Origin: a virus
Taxonomy: Duplodnaviria; Caudoviricetes
Strand: one strand, 5' to 3'
Virus record (IMG/VR): IMGVR_UViG_3300037423_000960
Coordinates: 9,473-73,472 of that record
DNA: 64,000 nt
In this document: positions 5,377 to 56,211 of the stretch, piece after piece
Numbering within the stretch: the first letter of the stretch is position 1
Layout of the letters: each line of letters starts with the position of its first letter
Made by a program: the position numbers and the translations under genes
Notes under the pieces: model-generated
Databases searched by the model: none
What the model saw: only the letters and a program-made list of their open reading frames with translations
Told to the model about the DNA's origin: nothing

Positions 5377-6807
5377 TTATGCGCCGACGAGAGGACGTAC
5401 ACCGCGCCGCCGAGACTTCTCTGCAAAGTGGTTGATAAGCTGCGAGAAAGCGTCCGGAATGTCGTCGTGGACTGCTGCCGGAAAGGTCAGCAACTCTTCC
5501 AAGAACTGAGGAACCCAGTCAGCTCTGCGAGGAATGAGAACACGCTTGGCTTCCATCGCAGGAATTGCCAGCTCAAAGCGCATCTGCTTGTCGCCGAGTT
5601 TCTGCGGCGCTACCGGGACGATGTTCTGACCAGAAGTACGAAGAACCTGAATCAGCGAAGTGCCGGTGCCCTTATTCTCAATGAGGACTAGGTGCGCGCC
5701 CATGTCTGAGTTGAAGCGAGGAACTTCTCGCATCAGTGTATGGAACTCCGCCTGTTTCCGATACATTCCCTTCAGCCAGAAGCGTCGAGTCTTCAGACCC
5801 ATTGCGGCTGCGAGACCTACGGTAAAGTCAGATCGCTCGTTGGCGGTACCAGCGGTGTCCCACGACACGATGTTAAGAAGAGGCTCGTCAGTGGGAAGAC
5901 GATCGTAGTATTCGAACCACTCACTCTTAACCTCACCCGTCTCGGCAGGGCGCGGATGTTGTTGGTACAGAGCATTCCACTCGTCGAGATTTCCGTCGGC
6001 AGACATGCCACCCTTGATCTCGAGTAGCTTGTCCACCGGATACATCTCAGGCCACAGGGCGTCGCCGTACTTACGACCAAGCTGATGCTCGAGTTCCAAC
6101 GTGGGGTCTTCGCAGATGGCCGGAAGGCTGATTAACTCGAACGGCTCGATCTCGCCACGCTCGGACTTCTTGAGAACTTCTCCAGTGAGATCGTCCTCGT
6201 GCCAACGAGTAGCGATAATGACGATGACGCCACCTGGGAGAAGTCGCGGTACCACGTCCACGAAGAACCATTCGGAGATCTTCTTTCTCTCAGTGGCTGA
6301 GTAAGCAACCAGCTTTGACTTGTAAGGGTCGTCCACGAGGATTAGGTTGGCGCGGCGACCGACGACCGTGCCGCCGACACCCGTCGTATAGTACTCGCCT
6401 CCGGCAGTGGTATCCCATCTATCCTTGGCGCGTGTGTCTGGGCTGATCTGTATCTCGAATAAACGGCGATACATCTCATTATTGATCAGGTTACGAACCT
6501 TAGCCCCGATCTCGGCGGCGAATGGCTGAGTGTGAGAAGCTGCGATAATCTTGTCTTGTGGACGATTGCCTAGCCAGAAGGCAGGAAAGTTGTGAGAGGA
6601 ATAGACGGACTTAGCGTGTGCCGGTGGCATCGCGATGATGAGACGTTTCTTGACACCGCGGAGCGCTGCGTCGAGAGCACGACATACGATTAGGTGATGT
6701 GGCGCAGGAGTGTGAATGTTCTCGGTTACGTAGGGAACGAAGTTCTCCATGTGCATCTTCGCCTCCTCTCGGCGAAGTAGCTCACGGATGATTGCTTCTT
6801 CGTTCAC
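5377..6807 (-). CDS. terL: Terminase large subunit
   Basis: IIAMPPAHAKS Walker A variant, LILVDDPYK Walker B, SWDTAG nuclease start and HDDIPDAFSQ end. Confidence 0.93.
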   Translation of the reverse strand: MNEEAIIRELLRREEAKMHMENFVPYVTENIHTPAPHHLIVCRALDAALRGVKKRLIIAMPPAHAKSVYSSHNFPAFWLGNRPQDKIIAASHTQPFAAEIGAKVRNLINNEMYRRLFEIQISPDTRAKDRWDTTAGGEYYTTGVGGTVVGRRANLILVDDPYKSKLVAYSATERKKISEWFFVDVVPRLLPGGVIVIIATRWHEDDLTGEVLKKSERGEIEPFELISLPAICEDPTLELEHQLGRKYGDALWPEMYPVDKLLEIKGGMSADGNLDEWNALYQQHPRPAETGEVKSEWFEYYDRLPTDEPLLNIVSWDTAGTANERSDFTVGLAAAMGLKTRRFWLKGMYRKQAEFHTLMREVPRFNSDMGAHLVLIENKGTGTSLIQVLRTSGQNIVPVAPQKLGDKQMRFELAIPAMEAKRVLIPRRADWVPQFLEELLTFPAAVHDDIPDAFSQLINHFAEKSRRRGVRPLVGA

Positions 6808-16281: not shown

Positions 16282-16835
16282 CAGCTTCTAGCCTTTCTCC
16301 ATTGACCGTCAAGATCTCTGCGCATGTTCGCGATGTTCGTCATGAGCCACGGAGACATAGTGACGAACTCAGCTCTGTAAAGTTCTAGTGTCTGAGTCAT
16401 TTTGTCCCAGGCTCTCTTATAGTAGATCTCCGCGTAGCGATTGCCGAGCATCCTCTCATGGATCATACTGACGCAGAACTCAGCACGATCACACAGTTCG
16501 ACGAGCCCCCACTCAGGATCAGTGAGACCCTCTATCAAAGAGTAGAGAGCTTGAGGTAACGTGGTTCTCATGTGATCACGCTCAAGCTTGTCCATGAGAG
16601 TCTCCAGTACAGGATCGGACCACTTTGTCGGACCCGGCATATCTCCCGTAGCCTTCTCGCCGAAGTCATGGAGCTGAGCGGCTATGATAATCTCTCGCCG
16701 GGCATCAGGCCAGAGCATAAGAAGAAGGAGAACGACTCCCCACGTATGCTCGCTGATATTCTCAGCGTGGATGTTCTCCATCGTGTGCTTTCGCCGAACC
16801 TTTCCGGAGAGCCACGCGTCTACGAAGGAGATCAT
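16281..16835 (-). CDS. HD-domain phosphohydrolase (YfbR-like deoxynucleotidase)
   Basis: VRRKHT, ENISEHTWGV, QLHDFGEKATGDMP and CDRAE. Confidence 0.8.
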   Translation of the reverse strand: MISFVDAWLSGKVRRKHTMENIHAENISEHTWGVVLLLLMLWPDARREIIIAAQLHDFGEKATGDMPGPTKWSDPVLETLMDKLERDHMRTTLPQALYSLIEGLTDPEWGLVELCDRAEFCVSMIHERMLGNRYAEIYYKRAWDKMTQTLELYRAEFVTMSPWLMTNIANMRRDLDGQWRKARS

Positions 16836-17869
16836 CTTGCGAGAGCTTTCCTCTGAGCCTTCACCTGCTTATCCATCAACCAGTTCACGCAGGCCAGTCG
16901 CAAGGATTCTGACTCACACGTTCGCAAGATCTCCATGGCAAGATCTATGCGAACTTCTATAGGAGTATCTATGCCTGTGAGACTCTTCAGCTTGTATATC
17001 CTGTAAGCCTCGCAAATCGGTCTCACTACGCGGCCGAGATAAGAACTCAATTTACCGACGGGAATCTCGCCTCCGTTGACGAATTCTGCTAGAATCTTCA
17101 TATCGAGAGTGAGACCGTGTTCCGTTAGACTGTAGTCTGCCTTCTGAGAGGCGAAGTTCTTAAACTCGTCCATGTGCTCCCAGCAGCGCTGGGAGGTCTC
17201 GTTCTCAAGGTAGAGGTGCATGTTCTTGGAGATCTGGTAGTAGGTGCCGACCTCGAGACCTGCGTGATAGGCGATGTACTCATGCAGAAGTGAGAAGTGA
17301 ACGAGATTACTACCCATAGCTCCGTAGACGAGGTCGTTGCTGCGATTAGTCACCGTCATGTCAAGAAGATAGCCGCCCTCTCTCGGACGGGTGTCGAACA
17401 AGACCTGCTGGTTGCAGGCGAAGTCACGTCCCTGATCCTTCACTAGCTCTTGGGAGTCCCAGATCTGAAGAACGATACGACGATCCTCTGGATTACTTCG
17501 TAGTTTCTGCACAACTCTCGCGAGTTGATCGAAGTGGAAGTGTCTGCGCCAACGGAAGCCGTACGGAGCCGCGAAAGTCACTCCGTCGTCAGAGTAATTC
17601 TTCATGCCGCTGTTGTAGAGATTCAGAGGCGCTACGGTGTCTAGGCCGGCGAACATCCACATCGTCTCGAAGAGATGGAAGAAGTGATTCGCGTCCCGCA
17701 CAGGATGGTCGAGAAGTCTCCTGCGAGGATTGACGTACTCTAGACACACCGGCTTCGGGAACCGAATGACAGGACCGTTACGACTGTCGGTCTTGATTCC
17801 CTCCGACTTGAGAGCTTGCATCACACGACCGAAGCCCTCGTTGGGGCAGTCTATCTCGAAGCTATACAT
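16832..17869 (-). CDS. Thymidylate-synthase homologue, probable dUMP hydroxymethylase
   Basis: DRRIVLQIWD, catalytic FAC and NRSNDLVYGAMGSN (RSND hydroxymethylase-type motif, Asn at the dUMP-specificity position); lies next to a 5-hmdU kinase. Confidence 0.85.
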   Translation of the reverse strand: MYSFEIDCPNEGFGRVMQALKSEGIKTDSRNGPVIRFPKPVCLEYVNPRRRLLDHPVRDANHFFHLFETMWMFAGLDTVAPLNLYNSGMKNYSDDGVTFAAPYGFRWRRHFHFDQLARVVQKLRSNPEDRRIVLQIWDSQELVKDQGRDFACNQQVLFDTRPREGGYLLDMTVTNRSNDLVYGAMGSNLVHFSLLHEYIAYHAGLEVGTYYQISKNMHLYLENETSQRCWEHMDEFKNFASQKADYSLTEHGLTLDMKILAEFVNGGEIPVGKLSSYLGRVVRPICEAYRIYKLKSLTGIDTPIEVRIDLAMEILRTCESESLRLACVNWLMDKQVKAQRKALAR

Positions 17870-19211: not shown

Positions 19212-20105
19212 TCAGGGGACTATAGGCTTTGCCTTACGCCAGTCGTAGCCGGAGCGTGGACGACCCTCGCCATTCTTCACACGGAGATACTTGTCCAGTT
19301 CGCACAGAGAGAACTGAACATCGGTGACTCCGTAGTGAACACCAATCTCAGGCATGTAGTCCTTGAACGCACGATCCATGCTGAGACGACCGAGAAGAGC
19401 CTGCATCTTGTGCTGAGCCCTCTGCTGAGGCATCCCGGCCTGCGTCGGACGATCGTGAAGACGATTGAGACCGCGGATAGCTCCGGGGCCAGCCGGTGAC
19501 CACGTCAGCTTGTCGGTAGCATTCTCGAGCACAGGCGTCAGCATCATGTCCAGTGCGATCTCCTTCGCCATGAAGGGACCAATTCCGGGCATTCCCTGCA
19601 AGAGCTCACAGACCTCCTGCCACCGATTCGTGCGCTCAGCCATGCCGATGACAGAGTCCAGACGCATCCGAAACGGAGTGAGAAACTGCGACACGACGAC
19701 GATCTGCTTAGGATCTGTGCTGCCCGCGTTCGTTATGATGTACGCTCCGGTGAAGACTTTCTTCCCGGCAGCGAGACGCTCGCCGGCGCGACGTATGAGA
19801 AAATCTGGGTTCCACTCGTATTGAAAACCAACGTCTTCTAGAAACTCAATGCTGCCGAAGTAACGCGCGATGGCACAGTTGAGTGCCATGACTTGTTTCG
19901 GAACATTTCCACGATTAGGATTATACCAATTCCGGATCAGCCACTGCGTAGTGCGATCGTGCTTGCGGAGAATATTTGTGAACTTGTAGCGCGAGAGAAT
20001 TGGATCTGTGGTCCAGGGACCTGGCTCACCTGCAACTCTCTTCTGCCGGATAGCTTCGCGCTCGTTCAGGTAGTGAACGAAAGTCTCGTAGATCTCTTGG
20101 TTCAT
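19212..20105 (-). CDS. 5-hydroxymethyl-dU DNA kinase (aGPT-Pplase1 / 5-HMUDK family)
   Basis: EREAIRQKR, PWTTDPILSRYKFTNILRKHDRTT, GIGPFMAKEI, GPGAIRGLNRL and DVQFSLCELDKY. Confidence 0.85.
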   Translation of the reverse strand: MNQEIYETFVHYLNEREAIRQKRVAGEPGPWTTDPILSRYKFTNILRKHDRTTQWLIRNWYNPNRGNVPKQVMALNCAIARYFGSIEFLEDVGFQYEWNPDFLIRRAGERLAAGKKVFTGAYIITNAGSTDPKQIVVVSQFLTPFRMRLDSVIGMAERTNRWQEVCELLQGMPGIGPFMAKEIALDMMLTPVLENATDKLTWSPAGPGAIRGLNRLHDRPTQAGMPQQRAQHKMQALLGRLSMDRAFKDYMPEIGVHYGVTDVQFSLCELDKYLRVKNGEGRPRSGYDWRKAKPIVP

Positions 20106-53677: not shown

Positions 53678-54253
53678 CTAGGATCCCCAACGATCTGCCA
53701 TCGCCTCTGCGATGCCTGGAAAGAAGCGTGAGCGAATCTTCCAGCGGTCGATAGATTCTGGGGTTGGGTCGCGACCGAGCTCGTCGCGATTGACGTAGGG
53801 TGGAGGGATGTAGCGGGTGTGACGGAGAGGGTTCAGGTTCTTGAGGCGCAGAGTGAATGTCTTGGCGTAGGGCTCGCCGAACTGCCAGGGATGAATCGTC
53901 TGATGATGAGGGATGTTCGTGAATCGTCGTATGACTCCGGGCGGATTCTCTATGCAGATGCGCTGGATGGGAGCGTTCCAGAGGGCGAGGAAGAATTGGA
54001 TGGCGTCGCGGGTCTTGGCGATGCGGGTCGGGTCCTTGAGACGACGATGGTATCCGGCCGAGCAGAGATAGGTGCACGGCGGATGGGCGATCATGAGATC
54101 CCAGGAGTCGTTGAGATGGTTGAGGACGTCGTTCTGGATGTGGGGTCCGGGAGACTCCGTCGGTGACAGGTCACAGCTCCAGGCGTCGTGGCCTCTGGAG
54201 AGGAAGGCGTCGCGAACTATGCCGGAGAACTCACAAGCTACGAGGATTCGCAT
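53678..54253 (-). CDS. Short phage DNA cytosine-methyltransferase-like protein (191 aa)
   Basis: MRILVACEFSG, WSCDL, DLMIAHPPCTYL, ICIENP, QFGEP and RSRFFPGIAEAMA; start at ATG 54253. Confidence 0.7.
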   Translation of the reverse strand: MRILVACEFSGIVRDAFLSRGHDAWSCDLSPTESPGPHIQNDVLNHLNDSWDLMIAHPPCTYLCSAGYHRRLKDPTRIAKTRDAIQFFLALWNAPIQRICIENPPGVIRRFTNIPHHQTIHPWQFGEPYAKTFTLRLKNLNPLRHTRYIPPPYVNRDELGRDPTPESIDRWKIRSRFFPGIAEAMADRWGS

Positions 54254-54363
54254 CCGACAGCGGTAGCACGGCGAGAAGAGACTGACAATATATTTCGAAT
54301 TTTCGAGTCGAGAATTTAAGATTGCGCTCACTGAGGCCCGCGTGGGTGGGCGGGCGTATATGG

Positions 54364-54387
54364 GGCCAAGGTACCATAGCGCCTTGG
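54364..54387 (+). repeat. Left boundary direct repeat and hairpin
   Basis: GGCCAAGGTACCA-TAG-CGCCTTGG; can fold GGCCAAGG/CCTTGGCC. Confidence 0.75.
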
Positions 54388-54426
54388 CCGTAGCCGCCCG
54401 CAAACGCCTGCTAGGGCGCAAAGCAA

Positions 54427-54455
54427 TGCCGCCCGCTACCATGTAGCGGGCGGCA
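54427..54455 (-). terminator. Terminator-like hairpin ending the island operon
   Basis: TGCCGCCCGCTAC-CAT-GTAGCGGGCGGCA (13-bp stem), followed by TTGCTTT on minus strand. Confidence 0.6.
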
Positions 54456-54478
54456 CGTTGGCATGGCTTGGCGCGCGT

Positions 54479-54712
54479 TTAGCGGGCGCGCGGCCAATGC
54501 GGCGCAACGCCGTTAGCAATGCGCGCCCATTGCCGCGCCAAGTAAGCGGCGCGCAGCTTTGGGCTATAATTGGCAAGCTGCGCGGCCATGCTGCGCGCTT
54601 GGCCGTAGCGGCGCGGCGCATAGGGCGCGGGCGCATAGTGCCAAAGGGCGGCGCGCATGTAACTGGCTTGGCGCGGCATGGCGGCGGGTTGGGCTTGGGT
54701 TGGCGTAAACAT
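54479..54712 (-). CDS. Island ORF2: 77-aa basic protein with no Asp or Glu
   Basis: Shares the leader CCTAACGCAAAGG with ORF1 (54723-54735 vs 55313-55325). Confidence 0.55.
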   Translation of the reverse strand: MFTPTQAQPAAMPRQASYMRAALWHYAPAPYAPRRYGQARSMAAQLANYSPKLRAAYLARQWARIANGVAPHWPRAR

Positions 54713-54744
54713 AGGTTTGTTACCTTTGCGTTAGGTGGCGGGTT

Positions 54745-54773
54745 GGCGCGGCGGCAACCATTGCCGCCGCGCC
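54745..54773. other. 13-bp hairpin between the two island ORFs
   Basis: GGCGCGGCGGCAA-CCA-TTGCCGCCGCGCC. Confidence 0.65.
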
Positions 54774-54780
54774 CGTTAGG

Positions 54781-55302
54781 CTAGGCTAGCGCCTTGCTAG
54801 CTAGGCCATGCTGTGGGCGGCAAAGCCCGTTAACGTAACCTTGCGCCCATTTGGCCGCTGTTGCGCTGTTAGGCGTTACGTGCACGCCTAGCGCCTTGGT
54901 TGCGCCCATTGCGGCCATAAGCTGCGGGTTGCCAAGTATGGCGGCAACAATGGCCGCGCCCGTTGCGCTAGTGCCGCCGTTGGCTGCGTTGGCAAGCGCA
55001 ACGGCTGTTAAACCCATAGCCGTTGCTTGGCCGTTGCGCCCAATGCCGCCCGCTACGCCAACAGCCGCCTTGCCTAGCGCCGTTAGCGTAAAGGTAGCGT
55101 TGGCAAAGCTAGGCGTTAGGCTGTTAACAGCCGCGCCGTAGCGCTTGGCGCTAGCTGGCGCATTGCCAAGCTTTGCCGCAACCGCTGGCGCGGCGGCAAT
55201 GCCCGCGCGCCCAATAATAGCGGCGGCGCGCAGCATGGGCGCCACCTTTACGGGCGCGGCATTGTTGGCGGTGTTGGCGGTGTTGTTGTTGTTACGTGCC
55301 AT
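54781..55302 (-). CDS. Island ORF1: 173-aa Ala/Gly/Asn-rich basic protein with no Asp or Glu
   Basis: ATG preceded by AAAGGC instead of the AGGAG used elsewhere; longest ORF in the island. Confidence 0.75.
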   Translation of the reverse strand: MARNNNNTANTANNAAPVKVAPMLRAAAIIGRAGIAAAPAVAAKLGNAPASAKRYGAAVNSLTPSFANATFTLTALGKAAVGVAGGIGRNGQATAMGLTAVALANAANGGTSATGAAIVAAILGNPQLMAAMGATKALGVHVTPNSATAAKWAQGYVNGLCRPQHGLASKALA

Positions 55303-55463
55303 GTTGTGTTTGCCTTTGCGTTAGGCCGCTTGGCGGCATTGCCAGCGGCGGCATTACATATGCGCGCAGCATGGCAACATGGCAACATGGCATTTGCGCC
55401 AGGCGCGCCCGCCAAGGCGCTTTTGCGCCAAACTGAGTGTTTTACGCGCCAAGGCGTTACAGA

Positions 55464-55484
55464 GGCCAAGGTACCACGCCTTGG
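55464..55484 (+). repeat. Right boundary direct repeat and hairpin
   Basis: GGCCAAGGTACCA-CGCCTTGG, exactly 1,100 nt from the left copy. Confidence 0.75.
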
Positions 55485-55627
55485 AGCAGGAGTGTGGAGC
55501 GACACGACCAGATCTTCGTCAAGATCCTGATCGGCGCTACGTTTGTAGCGTGATCTTCGTCCAGATCCAGATCGTGATCCAGATCCCTTATCAGATCCAT
55601 CCCGTCAAACGACGACGTCCGGCGACC

Positions 55628-55909
55628 TCACTGCCGAGGAGGAACGGGGAACTCTGCGATCTCGCTGAGCCGACGAACCTGACGACATTCCATGACGTTC
55701 GGCATCTCGCGCGTGAGCAGCGTGGCGTTGTCGTCTCCGCAGCCGTAGGCAACCCAACGCACGTCGCGATCCTGCGCGACGACCTGAGCGTCGGCGAGCT
55801 CGCTGTTGAGCGGAGCGGGCTGGAGCTGTGAGCCCATGAGGAAGCCAGCCGACAGAGCGACGACGGCGACGAGGCCCAGAAGGCCGGTGCTGTGACGAGT
55901 GACGCGCAT
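55628..55909 (-). CDS. Early gene, exported protein (93 aa)
   Basis: Start MRVTRHSTGLLGLVAVVALSAGF with AAGGAG RBS; signal or TM segment. Confidence 0.6.
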   Translation of the reverse strand: MRVTRHSTGLLGLVAVVALSAGFLMGSQLQPAPLNSELADAQVVAQDRDVRWVAYGCGDDNATLLTREMPNVMECRQVRRLSEIAEFPVPPRQ

Positions 55910-55939
55910 TGCAGATCTCCTTTGCTTGCCTGCAAATGT

Positions 55940-55968
55940 AGTATTCAGTCGTGGCCCTCGCCCGCCAA
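55940..55968 (-). promoter_or_regulatory. Early promoter P1
   Basis: TTGGCG-N17-AATACT. Confidence 0.65.
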
Positions 55969-56211
55969 GCCGGGATTGCTCCACCGGAGGCGTCCGTCGG
56001 CGAGCGTCTCTCTCAGGCGATCTGTGCTCGTGACCATCGTCCTCTCGTTCTGCTCTCGTATGAGGCTCTTCCAGAAGTAGTAGTCGTAGCGATCGCTCTT
56101 ACTCAACTGATAGATGTTCGTGATCGTCCGGCGATAGGGATGCCACTCCTCGCTGAAGCCAATCAGAACGATCTGGCGACCTTCTTCCTGCGACTCTCCT
56201 CTCGTCCTCAC
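55945..56211 (-). CDS. Early hypothetical protein
   Basis: 88 aa, overlapping upstream stop. Confidence 0.5.
   Translation of the reverse strand: MRTRGESQEEGRQIVLIGFSEEWHPYRRTITNIYQLSKSDRYDYYFWKSLIREQNERTMVTSTDRLRETLADGRLRWSNPGLAGEGHD

Follow-up and report, generated by a model that had tools for sequence, protein, structure and literature searches.

Hypermodification of thymidine in phage DNA is sequence-specific (PMC8989533, PMC5889632), and in M6, ViI, and PhiW-14 it has been inferred to take place at TG/TC (PMC6449724). In the Pseudomonas phage iggy, dPreQ0 is found at a strict GA dinucleotide motif (PMC10484667), and in CAjan at GA/GGC (PMC7544227). The locus that we describe here recalls these systems, in which a two-letter DNA context selects the bases to be decorated. 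What we report is a local island cleared of such a presumed target context, of which we found no description in the literature searched.

The window, by which we mean the whole stretch of 64,000 nucleotides that was analysed, carries at positions 54333..55435 an island of 1102 bp with zero GA or TC, and this island holds an entire two-gene cassette. The purge is strand-symmetric, neither dinucleotide being present on either DNA strand. The longest other GA/TC gap in the 64-kb window is 54 bp, for a chance expectation of about 52 bp. GA/TC is otherwise the most frequent dinucleotide step of the window (10,533 occurrences in 64 kb) and is enriched in the genome outside the island, with an observed/expected ratio of 1.35. 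The phage is present at high depth in soil and rhizosphere samples, and the cassette is bridged without differences by sequencing-run contigs in three samples. The purged zone comprises the predicted transcription unit together with about 50 bp 5' of its -35-like hexamer and about 100 bp 3' of its terminator; in relatives, the purged DNA 5' of the hexamer spans 22 to about 250 bp. The A+T content is 35% in the island versus 44% elsewhere, and a relic of C-to-T hypermutation was rejected on this ground.

Selection that strips short DNA words read by an enzyme is familiar from restriction-site avoidance. However, the classical form is genome-wide, statistical, and aimed at palindromes of 4-6 bp, whereas the present ban covers only 1.1 kb, is directed at a dinucleotide, admits practically no exception, and alters the composition of the proteins. 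The signature of palindrome avoidance, a genome-wide depletion of 4-6-bp words, was not seen: GATC occurs at 7.3 per kb genome-wide, and many 4-6-bp palindromes are retained in the island, among them GGCC, GCGC, CATG, AGCT, CTAG, and GGTACC. Another point of comparison is provided by ACA-less messages, which escape the MazF endoribonuclease through a constraint on one RNA strand and one word. In both cases an entire coding unit avoids a short word and codon choice pays for it, but the present cassette is purged on both strands and in non-transcribed DNA. By analogy, one may also think of the unmethylated CpG islands of vertebrate promoters, which are likewise short, promoter-holding stretches spared a DNA mark found throughout the remaining genome. 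There, the target dinucleotide is kept and shielded from the enzyme, whereas the present island deletes its presumed target altogether.

The cassette reads on the minus strand in the order promoter-like element, AAGG, ORF1, hairpin, AAGG, ORF2, and a hairpin with a T-rich tail, an order common to all related loci. The putative promoter, TTGCCA-N17-CATATG (55357..55385, minus strand), may be the GA/TC-free counterpart of the TTGTCA-N17-TA sites that precede other operons of this phage, and relatives carry at the same place TTGC[CA]A-N17 followed by an A/T-rich hexamer. A strict sigma-70 consensus scan of the cassette called no promoter. Upstream of each gene, on the minus strand, lies one copy of the 13-mer CCTAACGCAAAGG with an AAAGG Shine-Dalgarno-like core (55313..55325 before ORF1 and 54723..54735 before ORF2), each separated from the ATG by a 10-nt A/C-rich spacer. 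The preliminary description had reported this identical leader and its spacer, which are indeed there; the exact 13-mer is nevertheless specific to this phage, as relatives keep only an (A)AAGG core placed 8-11 nt before the ATG. The identity of the two copies is unremarkable, since the restricted vocabulary of the island also yields further exact repeats, one 16-mer and one 12-mer. The accompanying statement that AGGAG precedes nearly every other gene was too strong: 25 of the 55 crudely called starts have GGAG or GAGG in front of them, a lower bound because the starts are unrefined.

Both 13-bp hairpins described earlier, between the genes and at the end of the unit, have perfect stems. The inter-cistronic hairpin (54745..54773, minus strand; 3-nt loop) is replaced in each lineage by that lineage's own perfect palindrome, with compensatory changes in 5 of the 11 consensus pairs. 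The terminator-like element (54415..54455, minus strand) consists of a stem-loop at 54427-54455, also with a 3-nt loop, and a T-rich tail; relatives have a hairpin followed by TTTGC(T)TTG after ORF2. A terminator consensus scan did not call this post-ORF2 hairpin because its T run is interrupted. Beyond it, a conserved, GA/TC-free post-terminator tail (54333..54414, minus strand) contains a GGTACC hairpin conserved in relatives (54364-54389) and ends exactly at the island edge, GCC|TCAGT. Relatives keep ATGGTACC, CCATATAC, and the ...CGGGCC|TCAGT boundary in this tail. An upstream twin of the GGTACC hairpin lies just outside the island (55464..55484), at a distance of 1100 nt from its downstream counterpart, and has no evident equivalent in relatives.

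ORF1 (54781..55302, minus strand) encodes a protein of 173 aa with a pI of 11.75 and ORF2 (54479..54712, minus strand) an Arg/Tyr/Pro-rich, predicted helical protein of 77 aa with a pI of 11.66. As first noted, neither contains a single Asp or Glu. We found 80 homologues of ORF1 at 52-83% identity (0 D and 2 E in 13.4k residues) and 51 of ORF2 at 44-84% identity (0 D/E in 3969 residues), so that the absence of acidic residues, which the preliminary description had proposed to check in homologues, extends to both families: of about 17,400 residues in all, none is Asp and 2 are Glu. The dN/dS ratio is 0.08-0.56 for ORF1 and 0.15-0.56 for ORF2, and variation is concentrated at third codon positions (128 of 139 variable versus 78 and 81 in ORF1, 57 of 77 versus 32 and 30 in ORF2). 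Because of these homologues, of dN/dS below 1 with a third-position excess, and of a confident ORF1 model, ORF1 and ORF2 are, by comparison with relatives, real, conserved, co-oriented genes in what is probably one small transcription unit. A loss of reading-frame conservation had been named beforehand, together with a lack of transcription or translation, as the outcome that would speak against the genes, and both frames are conserved.

The AlphaFold2 model of ORF1 (pLDDT 89.9, pTM 0.83, from 27 sequences) predicts a compact, confident fold of a new family, while that of ORF2 has low confidence (pLDDT 58). The suggested structural search thus produced a usable model for ORF1 and an empty Foldseek result, with nothing found for the ORF1 model in PDB and BFVD. 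Searches of PHROGs, Pfam, NCBIfam, and PDB sequence profiles gave zero matches for either protein, and in the ESM Atlas ORF1 found only unnamed viral clusters and ORF2 nothing. No paralogue of either is present in the phage's own 73-kb record. For residues ~90-173 of ORF1, the best structural matches are nearly all winged-helix domains, at weak scores (Z 3.0-4.3). The products had been supposed to be basic and to bind DNA. Their basicity is plain, and DNA binding is hinted at by these winged-helix-like matches of the ORF1 C-terminus. Since this half of the compact predicted fold looks winged-helix-like, our best guess is that ORF1, which stands at the head of the structural-gene block, binds nucleic acid or acts as a regulator.

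Distant homologues of ORF1 (hhalign probability 99.7%) have 5-17 D/E each and presumably occur outside GA/TC-free islands; the acid-free state of ORF1 therefore looks derived. Among these D/E-bearing relatives, P0144 and P0145 gave no match in PHROGs, Pfam, or NCBIfam, and P0140 and P0141 none in PHROGs or Pfam. Locus searches of viral contigs with all four returned no match. GenBank phages had no tblastn match to ORF1, P0140, or P0145, and at the DNA level nothing in them matched the island or the 10 kb around it.

Eight related loci, seven of them clearly differing in sequence, could be compared (L004, L006, L011, L012, L014, L016, L017, and L018). In each, the island measures 1.03-1.45 kb and contains 0-1 GA/TC. 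L016 and L017 carry a divergent ORF2 homologue, and in L014 a 200-bp insertion adds a third small gene, also with 0 GA/TC. Synonymous sites are near saturation among relatives (dS about 1), and still no GA/TC has arisen. The circular assembly G003 has exactly one island, for GA/TC only. Across the loci compared, the ban is thus family-wide, and the conserved frames, gene order, and near-absence of GA/TC provide good comparative support for the initial view that the cassette is a self-contained expression unit shaped in evolution by a dinucleotide ban.

The constraint works at the DNA level. The exclusion of GAN codons and the restriction of Ser to AGY, both pointed out earlier, are borne out by the codon count: Ser is encoded by AGC/AGT only, and there are zero NTC, NGA, or TCN codons in the two genes. 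Written in the codon usage of the phage, the same proteins would be expected to contain about 42 and 17 GA/TC (about 59 in total), and 2000 codon-usage simulations reached minima of 30 and 6; none is seen. The promoter region, the spacers, and about 100 bp of post-terminator DNA are likewise purged. These simulations, the purged non-coding DNA, and the distant homologues bearing D/E place the ban on DNA, from which the loss of Asp/Glu, the AGY-only Ser, and the lack of NTC and NGA codons follow, as do the replacement of GGAG by AAGG and of TTGTCA by TTGCCA. The missing Asp/Glu are a by-product of this DNA ban and not of selection on the proteins.

As to its cause, we favour, with a probability of about one half, the idea that the cassette evades the phage's own thymidine hypermodification, with the T in TC as the target. 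The phage encodes a cluster made up of a thymidylate-synthase homologue, an HD nucleotidase, an aGPT-Pplase1/HMUDK_hel protein, a TAGT glycosyltransferase, and a Pam3 gp34-like protein. The thymidylate-synthase homologue (window 16832-17869), a candidate dUMP hydroxymethylase, matches PF00303, has 38% identity to M6 gp58, and is also found in G001 and G003. The HMUDK_hel protein (window 19212-20105; aGPT-Pplase1 / amino-acid:DNA-transferase type) matches PF18723 (1.3e-45) and has 35% identity to M6 ORF055; it and TAGT also occur in G001 and G003, the other two large contigs with an island. The co-occurrence of island and modification cluster was observed in three large contigs only, from related lineages. 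The phage thus shares with M6 relatives of the thymidylate-synthase homologue, the HD nucleotidase, and aGPT-Pplase1, but it has a TAGT-type glycosyltransferase in place of a homologue of the gp54 DNA kinase. Indeed, a tblastn search with M6 gp54 (E below 1e-3) for a P-loop 5-hmdU DNA kinase found none in G000, G003, G001, or PhiJL001, where the present genome, G000, is about 68% complete and G003 assembles as a circle.

Under thymidine hypermodification, T would be swapped for 5-hydroxymethyl-U, which would then be decorated in a sequence context, here presumably the T in 5'-TC-3'. A cassette without TC on either strand would remain undecorated, and its promoter, genes, and flanking protein-binding sites would be readable alike, whatever the modification state elsewhere. 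In the text of PMC11550810 that cites Raindlova 2016, bulky major-groove groups are said to block bacterial RNA polymerase at promoters. A bolder version, which we regard as unlikely, is that the cassette is a modification-blind bootstrap unit, the sole transcription unit on a fully decorated genome that the unmodified host RNA polymerase reads normally, and that its winged-helix-like product redirects transcription to TTGTCA promoters with a decorated key thymine. Elongating bacterial RNA polymerase is not known to be halted in general by bulky modifications, and this counts against a TC-modification reading because the coding regions are clean as well as the promoter.

Other modifications were considered as well. 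Deazaguanine modification was rejected, since TGT/DpdA (PF01702) is absent from G000, G003, and G001 and QueC from G000, while the positive controls matched; the lack of DpdA also sets this phage apart from iggy and CAjan. No N6/N4 or Dam-type methyltransferases were found. A small DNA methyltransferase-like gene (53678..54256, minus strand; phrog_757, 5.7e-49) neighbours the cassette but lies outside it and has its own TTGTCA-N17-TAC site at 54288; it had no Pfam or NCBIfam match. It was rejected as the cause of the ban because the circular relative G003 lacks it and keeps the island. PhiJL001, which has a similar kinase-less cluster, and the first 50 kb of M6 contain no dinucleotide-free island, so that T hypermodification is not accompanied by such an island as a rule. 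Five further HMUDK_hel contigs are without an ORF1 homologue, but these are 33-81% fragments in which the relevant region is, by an estimate from gene layout, not clearly covered.

The absence of an island beside the PhiJL001 cluster loosens the tie to the modification genes and leaves room for a GA/TC-directed enzyme other than the phage modification system. This could be a nuclease of host or phage origin, a nickase, or a TC-specific dsDNA deaminase, and the cassette genes would stay intact and expressible while other DNA is attacked. A strand-symmetric, dinucleotide-level, and strongly selected ban would suit any enzyme that reads GA/TC in duplex DNA. Yet the remaining genome, all essential genes included, is enriched in GA/TC, and the phage would be destroyed anyway; no candidate enzyme was found either. 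We hold this explanation to be possible, though unlikely.

Alternatively, the stretch may be primarily a cis-acting DNA element that has to stay unmodified over about 1 kb, for packaging, replication, partition, or coating by protein, in which the two genes are adapted passengers. The island overshoots the transcription unit on both sides, has a sharp conserved boundary beside the conserved GGTACC hairpin, in all cases immediately precedes the portal and structural block, and adjoins the densest GATC repeat cluster of the genome (10 in 200 bp). On the other hand, its limits follow the promoter-to-terminator unit in every lineage and its length varies with gene content, L014 having gained a gene inside it, and its sequence is poorly conserved outside the coding frames. 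The large terminase, moreover, is 48 kb away (TerL, window 5377-6807) with its own candidate small subunit, an unassigned 167-aa gene, directly upstream. Such an element seems to us unlikely. As for ORF1 itself being a terminase small subunit, its place before the portal gene is the one feature that would fit, and PHROGs and Pfam gave it no match.

The purged stretch largely coincides with one transcription unit, and a transcript without GA and UC might evade an endoribonuclease during infection, as ACA-less messages do with MazF. This constraint on RNA is improbable: it would require two words, GA and UC, to be banned on one RNA, and in all lineages the purge takes in the -35/-10 region, 22 bp or more before it, and about 100 bp past the terminator hairpin, all of which should be untranscribed. 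Selection at the protein level against acidic residues (favouring, for instance, extreme basicity or resistance to proteases), with the loss of GA as its consequence, would agree with the high pI of both proteins (about 11.7), but it is very improbable given that TC is banned as strictly as GA, that non-coding DNA is purged, that Ser is restricted to AGY and genome-favoured NTC codons go unused, and that the same proteins would contain some 59 GA/TC in the codon usage of the genome. Finally, since TGA can occur on neither strand, long frames abound in such GC-rich DNA without TGA and TCA, several overlapping ORFs of 60-108 aa being present in other frames, but that ORF1 and ORF2 are chance frames of this kind can be dismissed, as theirs alone are conserved in relatives, with dN/dS below 1 and a third-position excess, and ORF1 has a model of pLDDT 90 and distant homologues that presumably lie outside such islands.

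A constraint of DNA chemistry, the banning of one dinucleotide step, can therefore override protein composition. Two protein families, represented by 131 database sequences, manage to evolve and fold on 18 kinds of amino acid, where distant relatives make normal use of acidic residues, and these natural acid-free folded proteins offer material for protein-design studies. The finding also makes testable the effect of hypermodified bases on transcription and protein-DNA recognition in the phage's own life cycle. If the link with thymidine hypermodification is true, such islands would let one read from sequence alone the context in which a phage's modification enzyme acts, and would point to those few genes or sites that need to remain without the mark. 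If the bootstrap version were also true, a missing DNA mark would be a regulatory signal in a virus.

Both ORF1 and ORF2 lie inside an island of 1102 bp (54333-55435) in which a dinucleotide count finds no GA or TC on either strand. GA/TC is the commonest dinucleotide step in the window, with 10,533 occurrences, and the second-longest gap free of it is 54 bp, which is about the chance expectation. The preliminary description is confirmed and extended. Besides the coding frames, the purged stretch takes in the promoter-like region and a minimum of 22 bp before it, the spacer between the cistrons, and about 100 bp past the terminator hairpin, where it stops at a GCC|TCAGT junction that is sharply conserved in the relatives. 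The viral contig holding the window is 73.5 kb long (IMG/VR; completeness estimate 68%), and contigs from three separate soil or rhizosphere runs bridge the cassette (the two genes with their promoter-like, leader and hairpin parts) without differences, which rules out an artefact of assembly. Several metagenomes from soil and rhizosphere contain the phage in abundance, with a contig word depth of about 195-370 over 53800-56000 (runs X1, X2, X6, X9), and diverged relatives of the cassette occur in the same samples.

ORF1 (54781-55302, minus strand, 173 aa) and ORF2 (54479-54712, minus strand, 77 aa) exist as previously described, with no Asp or Glu and with AGY as their only serine codons. Database homologues number 80 for ORF1 (52-83% identity) and 51 for ORF2 (44-84%). 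We recovered the DNA of eight related loci (L004, L006, L011, L012, L014, L016, L017, L018); since L014 and L004 share about 95% identity, and L016 and L017 are close to each other, these represent about six clearly distinct lineages beside the window. Both frames are conserved in these relatives: codon alignments give dN/dS of 0.08-0.56, with variable columns in excess at third positions (128 of 139 in ORF1, against 78 first and 81 second; 57 of 77 in ORF2, against 32 and 30). On comparative grounds, we therefore regard ORF1 and ORF2 as genes. The place of ORF2 is taken in L016 and L017 by a divergent homologue of it. The L014 cassette has a third small gene (L014:1195-1462), acquired between ORF1 and ORF2 and with its own AAGG leader, which encodes an Arg-rich, acid-free protein of 56 aa; the corresponding 200-bp insertion relative to L004 contains zero GA/TC.

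On the minus strand, the order is promoter-like element, AAAGG, ORF1, hairpin, AAAGG, ORF2, hairpin with a T-rich tail, and finally a conserved stretch that includes a GGTACC hairpin. The promoter-like element (55385-55357) reads TTGCCA-N17-CATATG, and relatives have TTGC[CA]A-N17 with an A/T-rich hexamer in the corresponding position; scanning for the strict consensus gave no promoter. Sites of the form TTGTCA-N17-TA precede other phage operons, including one site directly downstream of the island before a methyltransferase-like gene, and the island element looks like this architecture with TC removed. Both ORFs are preceded by the 13-mer CCTAACGCAAAGG and a 10-nt A/C-rich spacer leading to ATG, as first noticed. 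Other exact repeats of 12-16 nt arise from the restricted vocabulary of the island, and relatives share only the (A)AAGG core; little weight therefore attaches to the 13-mer being identical, and more to where it lies. The same vocabulary may simply account for the exact 16-mer CAATGCCGCCCGCTAC, found at 54424-54439, within an arm of the terminator hairpin, and at 55041-55056, within ORF1. The contrast drawn with an AGGAG before nearly every other gene seems overstated, as GGAG or GAGG was seen before 25 of 55 crudely called starts, a lower bound. The hairpins after ORF1 (I11) and ORF2 (I9) were correctly seen, and their 13-bp stems are perfect; the inter-cistronic one differs in sequence between lineages yet is a perfect palindrome in every one, with compensatory changes in 5 of 11 consensus pairs. 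Overall, the interpretation first offered, a self-contained expression unit with basic and possibly DNA-binding products, is partly supported.

The ban is family-wide. The 80 ORF1 homologues contain no Asp and two Glu in 13,452 residues, and the 51 ORF2 homologues contain neither in 3,969. Every related locus has an island of 1.03-1.45 kb with 0-1 GA/TC; the three tolerated TC steps all fall at codon junctions within ORF1. Phage codon usage favours TTC, ATC, GTC, and CTC, and under it the same proteins would be expected to contain about 42 (ORF1) and 17 (ORF2) GA/TC, yet none is observed. Synonymous sites are near saturation (dS about 1) and GA/TC has not returned, indicating that selection against the step is ongoing. 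Distant ORF1 homologues (hhalign probability 99.7%) emerged from a profile search of 1.8 billion representatives, and some of them (P0140, P0141, P0144, P0145, P0146) carry 5-17 Asp/Glu; the fold itself thus does not demand freedom from acidic residues. From these comparisons, the ORF1 family is judged not intrinsically acid-free, and the acid-free state a derived adaptation of the island-bearing lineages. Codon choice, purged non-coding DNA, ongoing selection, and the acid-bearing homologues together argue that the constraint is placed on DNA. They lead us to reject chance ORFs, and also selection on the proteins, given that synonymous codons and non-coding DNA are purged and distant homologues carry acids. 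The papers searched contain no account of a local, near-absolute dinucleotide ban yielding acid-free protein families.

Both proteins are very basic (pI about 11.7), as predicted, and have no match among sequence families or PDB sequences. An AlphaFold2 model of ORF1 built from the alignment is confident (pLDDT 89.9, pTM 0.83), and Foldseek against the PDB and BFVD found nothing; the ORF2 prediction has three helices at low confidence. Exhaustive structural comparison of roughly residues 90-173 of ORF1 gave weak matches only (Z 3.0-4.3), nearly all to winged-helix DNA-binding domains (MCM, PriA, ORC/Cdc6, DpnI, MecI, and linker-histone types), a weak hint that ORF1 may bind nucleic acid, as had been suggested. 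The cassette always precedes the block of portal and structural genes, a position that would suit a regulator. The large terminase gene (5377-6807, minus strand) is separated by 48 kb from the portal gene and is surrounded by genes of replication and nucleotide metabolism (ribonucleotide reductase, polymerase exonuclease subunit), with an unassigned 167-aa gene just upstream; a role as small terminase subunit is possible but has no positive support. Directly upstream of the island is the densest GATC cluster of the genome (55479-55680; 10 in 200 bp, GATCTGGA-type repeats), which may represent an array of iterons or operators, or else the end of a small ORF rich in Asp and Leu. In L006, L011, and L018, GATC-rich repeats of a similar kind lie beside the island.

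Among the genes of the phage is a set for thymidine modification: a thymidylate-synthase homologue, a YfbR-like HD nucleotidase, an HMUDK_hel/aGPT-Pplase1 protein, a TAGT glycosyltransferase, and a Pam3 gp34-like protein. The other two large island-bearing contigs, G001 and G003, also carry HMUDK_hel and TAGT, and in G003, which assembles as a circle of about 91.8 kb, the only dinucleotide-free island is the single one that lacks GA/TC. Published work shows that the hypermodification of thymidine depends on sequence (PMC8989533, PMC5889632), and the restriction sites that proved resistant in M6, ViI, and PhiW-14 implicated TG or TC (PMC6449724). Bulky groups in the major groove stop bacterial RNA polymerase at promoters, according to a passage of PMC11550810 citing Raindlova 2016. 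We favour, at roughly even odds, the reading that a putative TC-directed thymine decoration by the phage itself is kept off the cassette: the phage would decorate T in TC, and a cassette without TC on either strand would escape. As the cause of the ban this is plausible but unproven, and the purging of coding DNA, rather than of the promoter alone, speaks against it. A possible variant is a cis-acting site with passenger genes. A nuclease or deaminase reading GA/TC would fit the strand symmetry, but would not explain the enrichment of GA/TC in the rest of the genome (observed/expected 1.35), and the island is richer in GC, not AT, as opposed to what a deaminase would leave. Phage iggy provides a precedent for a strict GA motif in its dPreQ0 modification (97% of sites; PMC10484667); no DpdA or QueC was found here, nor any N6/N4 or Dam-type methyltransferase. 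The neighbouring methyltransferase-like gene (53678-54256, minus strand; 192 aa, FSG and PPC motifs) matches phrog_757 and no Pfam or NCBIfam entry, and its product seems to have no target-recognition domain; the gene occurs in both G001 and G005, and was rejected as the cause because the circular, island-bearing G003 lacks it. A ban at the RNA level is disfavoured, since presumably non-transcribed DNA, in the promoter-like region and past the terminator, is purged too.

The gene set does not match the known pathway in its canonical form, which also speaks against the decoration reading: the phage shares an aGPT-Pplase1-type gene with M6 (35% identity to ORF055), but a search for the M6 gp54 kinase detected no homologue in it. 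The first 50 kb of M6 contain no island. A similar kinase-less gene set (gp19, aGPT-Pplase1-like; gp22, glucosyl transferase; gp24, dUMP hydroxymethylase-like) is found in PhiJL001 (AY576273), a cultured phage of Alphaproteobacteria, which, in contrast to the island-bearing phages, has no dinucleotide-free island. The lack of an island in PhiJL001 and in the first 50 kb of M6 counts against the decoration reading, and PhiJL001 makes a useful experimental comparison.
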